Shown here piece after piece: positions 60,619-63,915 of a stretch of 64,000 bases of DNA. The DNA lies in the NCBI RefSeq assembly GCF_003018235.1, contig NZ_CP027437.1; one strand, 5' to 3'. Source of the DNA: Escherichia coli. Lineage in GTDB: Bacteria; Pseudomonadota; Gammaproteobacteria; Enterobacterales; Enterobacteriaceae. Every line of letters starts with the position of its first letter. Position 1 is the stretch's first letter. The notes beneath the pieces are model-generated. The model searched no databases and was not told the DNA's origin. It saw nothing but the letters and a program-made list of their open reading frames with translations. The translations under genes were made by a program, and so were the position numbers.

Positions 60619-63600
60619 GTGGGTAAAGGTGGTGGTAAGGCGCACACGCCGGTTGAGGCGAAAGATAACCTGAAATCCACGCAGATGATGAGCGTGATTG
60701 ACGCGATTGGCGAAGGCCCGGTGGAAGGTCCGGTTAACGGTCTGCAGAGTATTCTGGTGAACAAAACCCCGCTGACGGACACGGACGGCAATCCCGTGAT
60801 ACACGGTGTGACAGCCGTCTGGCGTGCCGGGGAGCAGGAGCAGACACCGCCGGAAGGCTTTGAGTCCTCCGGGGCGGAAACCGCGCTGGGTGTGGAAGTC
60901 ACGAAGGCAAAGCCGGTGACGCGCACCATCACATCAGCGAACATTGACCGTCTGCGGGTGACCTTCGGGGTGCAGTCACTGGTGGAGACCACCTCACAGG
61001 GTGACCGTAATCCTTCTTCAGTCCGCCTGCTGATTCAGGTGCAGCGTAACGGCAACTGGGTGACGGAGAAGGATATCACCATTAACGGCAAGACCACCTC
61101 GCAGTACCTGGCGTCGGTGATAATCGGTAACCTGCCTCCCCGCCCCTTTAACATCCGGATGGTCAGGGAAACGGCGGACAGCACCACGGACCAGCTGCAG
61201 AACAGGACGCTGTGGTCGTCATACACCGAAATCATCGATGTGAAACAGGGTTACCCGAACACGGCCATTGTGGGGCTGCAGGTGGATGCGGAGCAGTTCG
61301 GCGGCCAGCAGATGACGGTGAACTACCATATCCGCGGTCGCATCATCCAGGTGCCGTCAAACTATGACCCGGAAAAACGCACATACAGCGGTATCTGGGA
61401 CGGGAGTCTCAAACCGGCATACAGCAACAACCCGGCCTGGTGCCTGTGGGACATGCTGACGCACCCGCGCTACGGGATGGGAAAACGCCTGGGGGCAGCG
61501 GATGTGGACAAGTGGGCACTGTATGCCATCGGACAGTACTGTGACCAGCGTGTTCCGGACGGCTTCGGAGGGACAGAGCCGCGGATGACGTTTAATGCGT
61601 ACCTGTCACAGCAGCGTAAGGCGTGGGACGTTCTCAGTGATTTCTGCTCGGCAATGCGCTGTATGCCGGTATGGAACGGCCAGACGCTGACGTTCGTTCA
61701 GGACCGCCCGTCGGATGTGGTGTGGCCGTACACCAACAGCGATGTGGTGGCGGATGATAACGGCGTGGGGTTCCGCTACAGCTTCAGCGCCCTGAAGGAC
61801 CGGCACACGGCGGTGGAGGTGAACTGGACCGACCCGCAGAACGGCTGGCAGACCTCCACAGAGCTGGTTGAGGACCCGGAAGCGATACTGCGCTACGGGC
61901 GCAATCTGCTGAAGATGGATGCGTTCGGCTGTACCAGCCGCGGTCAGGCCCACCGTGCCGGACTGTGGGTGATAAAGACCGAACTGCTGGAAACACAGAC
62001 GGTGGATTTCACACTCGGGTCACAGGGGCTGCGCCACACGCCGGGTGACATCATTGAAATCTGTGATAACGACTATGCCGGGACCATGACCGGCGGGCGC
62101 ATTCTGTCCGTTGACGCTGGCAGCCGGACCCTGACGCTGGACCGTGAGGTGACGCTTCCGGAAACCGGCACATCCACGGTGAACCTGATTAACGGCAGCG
62201 GTAAGCCGGTAAGTGTGGACATCACCGCACAACCGGCCCCTGACCGGATACAGGTCAGCGCCCTGCCAGATGGCGTGGAGACATACGGTGTGTGGGGACT
62301 GAAAATACCCGGTCTTCGCCGTCGCCTGTTCCGCTGTGTGTCCATCCGGGAAAACACGGACGGCACCTTTGCCATCACGGCGGTGCAGCATGTGCCGGAG
62401 AAGGAAGCCATTGTGGATAACGGGGCCACCTTTGAGCCGCTGTCCGGTTCGCTGAACAGTGTCACACCTCCTGCCGTGCAGCACCTCACGGTGGCGGTGA
62501 GTGCGTCTGACGGCCAGTATCTGGCGCAGGCGAAATGGGACACGCCACGGGTGGTGAAGGGCGTGCGCTTCAGTCTTCGCCTGACCAGCGGAAGCGGAGA
62601 AGACAGCCGTCTGGTGACCACTGCCATCACCGCAGACACGGAGCACCGTTTCAGTGGCCTGCCGCTCGGGGAATACACCCTGACCGTGAGAGCGATAAAC
62701 AGTTACGGCCAGCAGGGGGAGCCTGCCGGTACCACGTTCCGGATTGACGCCCCGGCAGCGCCTGTAACCATTGAACTGATACCGGGATATTTTCAGATAA
62801 CGGCGGTCCCGAAACTGGCCATTTATGACCCGACGGTGCAGTTTGAGTTCTGGCTCTCGGAAAAGCAGATTGCGGATGTTCGTCAGGTTGAAACCACCGC
62901 CCGTTATCTTGGTACGGCGCTGTACTGGAGTACCGCCAGTAATATCAGGCCGGGGTATGATTATTATTTTTATATCCGCAGCGTCAACCTGGTGGGCAAA
63001 TCGGCATTCGTGGAGGCCGTCGGCCGGGCCAGCGATGATGCGGAAGGTTACCTGGATTTTTACAAAGGGCTGATTAATAAAACACATCTCGGTAAAGAGC
63101 TGCTGGAAAACGCTGAACTGACGGAGGATAACGCCAGTAAGCTGGAGCAGTTCTCGAAAGAGTGGAAGGACGCGAACGATAAATGGAATGCCATGTGGGG
63201 CGTCAGAATTGAGCAGACCGAAGACGGTAAGCATTATGTTGCCGGGCTTGGTCTCAGCATGGAGGATACGGAAGAAGGCAAGCTGAGCCAGTTTCTGGTT
63301 GCCGCCAGCCGTATTGCGTTTATTGACCCGGCAAACGGGAATGAAACGCCGATGTTTGTGGCGCAGGACGGGCAGATATTCATGAACGACGTGTTCCTGA
63401 AACGCCTGACGGCTCCCACCATTACCAGCGGCGGAAATCCACCGGTATTTTCCCTGACACCGGACGGAAAGCTGACTGCCAGAAATGCGGATATCAGCGG
63501 CAGTATCACCGCCAGTTCGGGTACGCTCAACAATGTGACGATAAACCAGGACTGTGTGATTAAGGGCAATTTATCCGCGGCACAGATAACCGGAGATATT

Positions 63601-63915
63601 GCGAAGACGTATGTGCTTAACGGGAACAGTGTGTATATCCCTGCTCAGGTATTTACCATGAATCTGGTGATGCTGGGCGGTGCCGGACACCTGTACTTTA
63701 ACGGTAACGAGCAGACACCGGTTTCCTCTGCGATCCTTTCGAGGATGCAGACAGACAGTGTCTGGAGCGGCGGAAGTCCGGGGCATGGTGGCGGCAGTTA
63801 CAGACCTGTTTACAGCACAATCTGGATCAAGGTGTTCAGGCTTAATGCGGGGACACCCGTGACGGTGTCGGTTTCAGACAATGCCGTGACGGTTATCTGG
63901 ATGTCGAAGGCGTAA
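60619..63915 (+). CDS. J: Central tail fibre / host specificity protein gpJ (GTG start), divergent C-terminal domain
   Basis: N-terminal ~1000 aa closely match lambda J as recalled ([21 protein letters not shown]...); last ~150 aa unlike the lambda LamB-binding domain. Confidence 0.9.

Follow-up and report, generated by a model that had tools for sequence, protein, structure and literature searches.

A non-lambda C-terminal domain on the J protein of a lambdoid prophage in Escherichia coli

The 64,000-nucleotide (nt) stretch of Escherichia coli DNA analysed here (assembly GCF_003018235.1, contig NZ_CP027437.1; hereafter the window) ends within a lambdoid prophage whose gene J encodes the tip attachment protein, or central tail fibre protein. 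Our data show that this protein follows its lambda counterpart, gpJ, to the end of the fibre shaft and then continues into a domain of 102 amino acids (aa), unrelated in sequence, where lambda has its receptor-binding domain (RBD). J is probably a functional lambda-type tip attachment protein whose distal module has been replaced, through recombination, from a different RBD family. Exchange of the RBD on J is a well-known principle; what is new here is the tip family itself, which is uncharacterised, rare, mis-annotated and not in deposited phage genomes. Our literature searches found no study of this tip.

Backbone and C-terminal domain of J

The uninterrupted reading frame for J covers 60568-63915, and the mechanically called open reading frame (ORF) therefore begins upstream of the true start, which we placed at the GTG at 60619 by alignment to lambda J (MGKGSSKGHTP is matched) and which is preceded by a GGGGGA Shine-Dalgarno sequence. 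BLASTP of J against lambda J gave 765 identities over lambda residues 1-999 (77%) with 3 gaps, and the alignment stops at the motif GDIAK in the window's protein and GDIVK, ending at residue 999, in lambda. Nothing aligns past that residue, the leftover pieces having E values of 6 or more. An earlier reading made from the sequence alone, without database searches (the sequence-only reading), had held that J tracks lambda for about 1000 residues and is about 35 aa shorter; the first agrees with the alignment and the second with a count of 34 aa (1098 compared to 1132). The peptides that it quoted are present as written. It also set the divergence from SGTLNNVTI onward, and here the break is real but homology to lambda runs about 21 residues further, with 26 of the 42 residues encoded by 63481-63606 identical when counted on the alignment.

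Profile searches place the same boundary. Pfam recognises five domains on J in the lambda order, FNIII-A_GpJ (residues 86-207), Phage-tail_3 (330-498), Ig_J (609-712), Ig_J_second (714-815) and Phage_Tail_Tip (842-969), and no family on the approximately 130 residues after residue 969. The NCBIfam model NF049904 (lambda_TipJ) scores 2064 bits, compared to a curated cut-off of 1950, yet it is matched only at profile positions 1-1026 of 1163, by J residues 1-997, which leaves its last 137 positions unmatched. In a scan of the lambda C-terminus, the lambda RBD corresponds to Pfam PF12421 (Ig_GpJ_C), residues 1001-1132, at an E value of 5e-75. As similarity ends at lambda residue 999 and PF12421 starts at 1001, the break sits exactly at the junction between shaft and RBD.

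We found no PF12421 match in the window's J even at E <= 10, and hhalign gave a probability of 0.4% for the new domain against the lambda RBD. A search of PDB sequences matched J to lambda gpJ and to 'A8 gpJ 713' only up to GDI[AV]K, with no match in the new domain, and no NCBIfam family matches the 102 aa either. The OmpC-binding A8 RBD, by comparison, matches the lambda RBD at an E value of 7e-23. The A8 RBD is thus homologous to that of lambda and the window's has no detectable homology to it, which indicates that the two characterised tips are one family and that the window's tip lies outside it. If the C-terminus were ordinary allelic variation of lambda's own RBD, only the shared scaffold would speak for it; this is refuted by the missing PF12421 match, the hhalign probability, the length of the domain (102 aa compared to 132 aa) and a nucleotide identity of about 41% obtained by forced alignment, and we give it practically no credence. 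Alignment and profile comparison alike put this C-terminus outside normal lambda J variation.

The state of the gene also had to be weighed, as RefSeq labels intact J genes with the same RBD in strains O158:H23, M8, ES5 and ECOR29 as pseudogenes, 'incomplete; missing C-terminus', through its annotation pipeline PGAP. Such labels, together with decayed copies of the domain in three genomes, additional fragments and the lack of a cultured phage with the domain, could be due to a decayed gene whose C-terminus is junk from a deletion or rearrangement. However, the pseudogene features end at the shaft-RBD junction because the last 137 positions of the lambda_TipJ model find no counterpart, which accounts for the label, and the genes are intact at 6220-9516, 1711-5016, 1717-5013 and 1717-5013 of the respective extracted regions L002, L006, L007 and L008. 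No break interrupts the frame before the shared ...VIWMSKA stop in any of the four other E. coli copies that we extracted, which with the window makes five open copies. Comparing the 102 RBD codons with two copies of approximately 94% identity gave 11-12 synonymous and 3-4 non-synonymous differences; the ratio of non-synonymous to synonymous rates (dN/dS) of 0.08-0.09 indicates purifying selection on the RBD. In NCBI nr, two complete J proteins of 1098 aa have the same RBD and go under the name "host specificity protein J" (WP_225932693.1 and WP_310077496.1, both of other E. coli genomes), other genera keep conserved, diverged homologues, and an AlphaFold2 model of the RBD alone predicts a compact, all-beta domain (pLDDT confidence 82). 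Decay of the gene is largely refuted by these observations and is in our judgement very improbable; the new domain looks functional. For current RefSeq this amounts to an annotation blind spot, in which intact genes are marked as pseudogenes.

The exchanged cassette, its rarity and its relatives

In order to delimit the exchanged segment, the DNA of the window was aligned with lambda, with a J gene carrying another RBD (strain HCP17S3_I4) and with two J genes carrying the same RBD (ES5 and M8). Over the last 100 nt of the backbone (63405-63504) all are similar, with 91% identity to lambda, 94% to the other-RBD gene and 91-92% to the same-RBD genes. Over 63505-63606 identity is 62% to lambda and 68% to the other-RBD gene, compared to 92-95% for the same-RBD genes, and over 63607-63915 it is about 41-42% to lambda and the other-RBD gene, which is the noise level of a forced alignment, compared to 95%. 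Past the gene, in the spacer between J and lom with its terminator (63926-63996), identity is 92% to the other-RBD gene, 86% to M8, 47% to lambda and 38% to ES5. The exchanged unit is approximately 63505-63925 and is flanked by sequence common to J genes with other tips, which fits cassette exchange by homologous recombination. The cassette starts at the ADISGS stretch, about aa 964 of lambda in the numbering of the lambda J alignment, and is not marked by GC content, which is 0.51-0.55 over the last ~1.1 kb of J. The same cassette is found on J backbones that are considerably diverged upstream. These results agree with the sequence-only reading in two further respects: the region it singled out, 63480-63915, encloses the exchanged cassette, the step down in DNA identity starting at about 63505, and its view that the RBD was swapped is supported, over drift, by the break on the PF12421 boundary, the lack of detectable homology, the flanks of shared sequence and the same cassette on diverged backbones. 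The coordinates of the parts are collected in Table 1.

Table 1. Parts of gene J and its 3' flank, in positions of the window
Feature	Coordinates	Strand	Remarks
Gene J (tip attachment / central tail fibre protein)	60619..63915	+	1098 aa, GTG start, TAA stop
Conserved J backbone (hub, FNIII, helical shaft, most of beta-prism fibre)	60619..63504	+	77% aa identity to lambda residues 1-999
5' part of cassette, last ~34 fibre-shaft residues	63505..63606	+	Homologous to lambda, inherited together with RBD type
Non-lambda receptor-binding domain	63607..63912	+	102 aa, ends VTVIWMSKA; no Pfam, NCBIfam or PDB-sequence match
Glycine-rich loop GGSPGHGGG	63769..63795	+	Predicted tip of long beta-hairpin, between predicted strands 52-66 and 76-91; candidate receptor-contact loop
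3' flank of cassette: J-lom intergenic region and approach to lom start	63926..64000	+	Intrinsic terminator, stem 63953-63972 and T-run

Exchange at this position has precedents, and the modularity of gpJ has been established by experiment. When C-termini of natural gpJ variants are joined on at lambda aa 964, the particles are retargeted to OmpC (Brödel et al. 2024, PMC11338833), and the A8 and 1A2 gpJ variants of that work (PDB 9WCA/9WCB for 'A8 gpJ 713' with OmpC) resemble the window's protein in being natural E. coli prophage J proteins with a non-lambda C-terminal module, exchanged at about lambda aa 964, where the window's cassette starts. The difference lies in the RBD, which in A8 belongs to the lambda family and has OmpC as its receptor, whereas the window's RBD lies outside that family. 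Exchange of the J C-terminus is the established route by which lambdoid phages change receptor and a handle for retargeting lambda-derived DNA-delivery particles (PMC11338833). A second, unrelated tip family at the same junction would widen the range of usable receptors.

The tip is rare. Of 5,426 complete E. coli genomes, 4,453 contain the conserved 3' shaft region of J, at 13,307 places in all, whereas at least 80% of a query containing the tip is covered in only eight of the 5,426 (O158:H23 CFIAFB20140388, A8, ECOR29, SCU-111, M8, ES5 and two pig isolates). When the 102-aa domain and two diverged members were searched by tblastn against 50,697 phage genomes, nothing matched at E <= 1, the sole hits, at E 3-8, being spurious ones in Bacillus and Pseudomonas, and hence no receptor can be transferred by homology. 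A search of 5.8 billion clustered proteins with the domain returned four matches, short or fragmentary, and did not retrieve the full-length J although two are in nr; a search with the conserved shaft segment, made to count RBD types, gave nothing usable, all of it fragments under 185 aa. An exhaustive search of representatives gave 9 matches, two or three of which were discarded as low-complexity repeat proteins. Among representative genomes of 100,044 species, one for each, the family appeared once, in Citrobacter braakii, too seldom for an analysis of distribution.

The relatives that turned up in the exhaustive searches and in searches by sequence pattern, in Salmonella enterica assemblies, Citrobacter and IMG/VR contigs of undetermined host, are 35-57% identical over the RBD and sit not on J but on fibres of approximately 500 aa. 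Over residues 1-346 these fibres share 58% identity with that of Shigella phage POCJ13, and they carry the Pfam domain Phage_Tail_Tip. A Salmonella fibre (P0005) matches phrog_496 ("tail fiber protein") at an E value of 7e-163, and the window's tip matches the same profile at 6e-7, RBD residues 1-101 aligning to positions 634-726 of 769. All relatives join the tip at GDIAK and end in V[IV]WMSKA, while three segments between are variable in both length and sequence; by loop length, at least four or five subtypes can be told apart. The hallmarks of the family, conserved N-terminal strands and the C-terminal V[IV]WMSKA-stop, are present in the window's J and are invariant columns in the alignment of 7 sequences. 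The virion module around the relatives differs from that of J in having an SU10-type adaptor and a polyvalent protein of >2700 aa. Tip-capped fibres of this kind were located in Salmonella and Citrobacter prophages (extracted regions L004 and L005 at 8001-9503, L011-L016, and L019 at 3888-5375). The >2700-aa polyvalent protein, with LPD5, LPD1, MuF_C and LPD38 domains, is encoded a few genes downstream of the fibre in L004 and L005.

These fibres are of the Sepvirinae type, that of short-tailed phages resembling Shiga toxin phages (POCJ13 AHZ95227.1; phrog_496). Their Salmonella and Citrobacter members are like the window's J in carrying its RBD family at the same GDIAK motif, and unlike it in the scaffold of ~500 aa, the podovirus-type module and the host genera. 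As the tip is shared by J and Sepvirinae-type fibres, one tip family serves two scaffolds and different virion types in three enterobacterial genera. Its presence in long- and short-tailed temperate phages of different genera makes it a clear case of module exchange across morphotypes. POCJ13 itself and the E. coli Shiga toxin (Stx) phages in the collection carry another tip than the window's. Short-tailed Stx phages such as phi24B use BamA as receptor, which says nothing about the window's tip.

Receptor and mechanism

Lambda gpJ (P03749; PDB 8IYK, 8XCJ, 8XCK), which binds LamB, consists of hub domains, two FNIII domains, an alpha-helical shaft, a beta-sheet prism and an Ig-like RBD, four distal loops of which insert into LamB (Ge and Wang, PMC11101478); we have taken the names of the backbone domains from that paper. 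The window's J is like lambda's in its position after H-M-L-K-I, its identity over residues 1-999, its five Pfam domains and its GDI[AV]K junction, and differs from it in having the 102-aa domain, unrelated in sequence, instead of Ig_GpJ_C. Judging from sequence, the receptor is likely to differ from lambda's as well, and the step that the sequence-only reading took to a different receptor is a reasonable one. It is probably not LamB, because homologous tips already differ in receptor (LamB compared to OmpC) and because Gifsy-1 J, whose C-terminal region is only 18% identical to lambda's, uses OmpC, BtuB and OmpX (PMC12312913). Gifsy-1 J of Salmonella Typhimurium is lambda-like with a conserved N-terminal and a highly diverged C-terminal region, in which it resembles the window's protein; it differs in that the window's RBD is unmatched across the phage collection, where the presence of Gifsy-1 was not checked.

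The simplest alternative is that the new domain still binds LamB or a LamB variant and that the host range is essentially that of lambda. Nothing in our analysis identifies the receptor, the unrelated phages K10 and TP1 also use LamB (PMC11101478), and in related genomes the layout from J to lom is lambda-like, with no cor-like superinfection-exclusion gene between the two (such a gene was looked for as a clue to the receptor). Nevertheless, the two characterised RBDs are homologous and already differ in receptor, so that a dissimilar domain would hardly keep LamB, and we found neither sequence similarity nor significant fold similarity to the LamB-binding domain. We therefore consider retention of LamB unlikely.

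The structure models bear on another alternative, that instead of an outer-membrane protein the tip binds a surface glycan (lipopolysaccharide core, O-antigen or capsule). Our models are monomers computed from shallow alignments of 5-7 sequences. Their best Foldseek match is the head of the Tuc2009 receptor-binding protein at a non-significant E value of 6e-3, with lambda (8xcj_F) at rank 45 with a TM-score of 0.43. That the best weak matches are jelly-roll or TNF-like beta-sandwiches, including carbohydrate-binding heads such as that of Tuc2009 and lectins, could be taken as pointing to a glycan, and glycan-targeting tailspikes are found on some of the J-like central fibres in small siphoviruses (PMC11990801). 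However, none of the fold matches reaches significance (E >= 6e-3, TM <= 0.43) and such folds are generic, the characterised tips on the lambda scaffold all bind outer-membrane proteins, and related prophages have a separate side fibre downstream, the usual binder of glycan or primary receptor. A glycan-binding tip is accordingly, in our estimate, as improbable as one that binds LamB. In the small E. coli siphoviruses of the BASEL collection, allelic modules at or just after the J-like central fibre set the terminal receptor, an outer-membrane protein (PMC8594841, PMC11990801). In those phages a gene of its own, downstream of J, usually forms the specificity module, whereas in the window the module is fused to J, and we found no sequence relationship between the two.

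Returning to replacement of the distal module from a different RBD family, recombination probably brought in the last ~34 shaft residues together with the 102-aa RBD, and the working of the new tip can be outlined by analogy with lambda. Three copies of the new RBD would form the distal head of the central fibre (compare PMC11101478), and the variable loops, including GGSPGHGGG, may contact the receptor, presumably a component of the outer membrane. Through the conserved beta-prism and the helical shaft, binding might then cause the tail tip to open, as lambda's example suggests (PMC11101478). In the family alignment GGSPGHGGG lies in one of the three segments of variable length; other subtypes lack it or have another sequence there. 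We infer, rather than observe, the trimeric geometry of the tip, the triggering mechanism, the receptor change and the contact loops. More tentatively, and with somewhat greater doubt than belief on our part, the domain might represent a previously unrecognised phage tip family that moves between siphovirus J proteins in E. coli and podovirus-type Sepvirinae fibres in Salmonella and Citrobacter, that targets an outer-membrane receptor new to characterised lambdoid phages, and whose three variable loops set specificity.

Several points weigh against these proposals. The domain is tied to no receptor by experiment or by a known homologue, and a non-homologous domain could still bind LamB. Because the models are monomers from 5-7 sequences and have no significant PDB match, a trimeric tip is assumed, and so is the direction in which the variable loops point. 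As the family occurs in none of the 50,697 deposited phage genomes, the infectivity of a carrier phage is undocumented, and the end of the window 85 nt after the J stop leaves the side-fibre genes of this prophage outside view. The clearest payoff would be experimental, namely to name the receptor. Such a tip would also offer a naturally occurring test of the coupling by which one conserved shaft, carrying different heads, sets off DNA ejection.

Prophage setting

The window begins with chromosomal genes, including tmRNA (4756-5118) and the Phe leader pheL (22874-22999), and continues into the lambdoid prophage, with J at its end. The ORFs at 55452-60373 precede J and include homologues of H, M, L, K and I in that order. 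The I homologue matches phrog_32, and an integrase, a terminase and a head protease are present, so that the gene order H-M-L-K-I-J of a lambdoid prophage is found. The integrase (23167-24168, minus strand) adjoins the pheL leader, beside which lies an ORF (21692-22852, minus strand) that we take to be pheA. The ES5 prophage with the same tip ends beside raiA-bamD, neighbours of pheA in E. coli, and this suggests that the ES5 and window prophages share an integration site. Prophages with the same tip lie at serT-hyaA in O158:H23 and ECOR29, and in M8 the prophage adjoins an OmpW fragment and yciE/yciF/yciG. Since the neighbours differ, the cassette occurs at several attachment sites.

Frameshifted remnants of the tip domain were also seen at the serT-hyaA locus in three genomes (5856-6552 of extracted region L003, from E. 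coli MFDS1022581, and hits H54 and H55). They adjoin a truncated lom, a tRNA-Arg/tRNA-Gly pair and an integrase fragment, and are leftovers of a degraded prophage of the same lineage. In the window, prophage RNAs at 25788-25875, 32641-32838, 39458-39610 and 39912-40122 comprise two C4 antisense RNAs, isrK, STnc100 and a tRNA-Arg(tct)/tRNA-Gly(tcc) pair.

Downstream, the window ends before lom, which follows J in related genomes; in related prophages a separate side fibre and an assembly gene lie further downstream. Upstream of J, the spacer between I and J (60374-60618) is 245 bp long, compared to 60 bp in lambda, and holds a ribosome-binding site (AAGGAG), an ORF of 20 codons, MYGETVTLCNYQRHRYFAEM (60449-60511), and a strong hairpin terminator (60544-60569) with a T-run; the insert looks like a small moron. 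This spacer is covered to at least 80% in only 12 of the 5,426 E. coli genomes, is never annotated, and co-occurs with the rare RBD in CFIAFB20140388, SCU-111, ECOR29 and A8.

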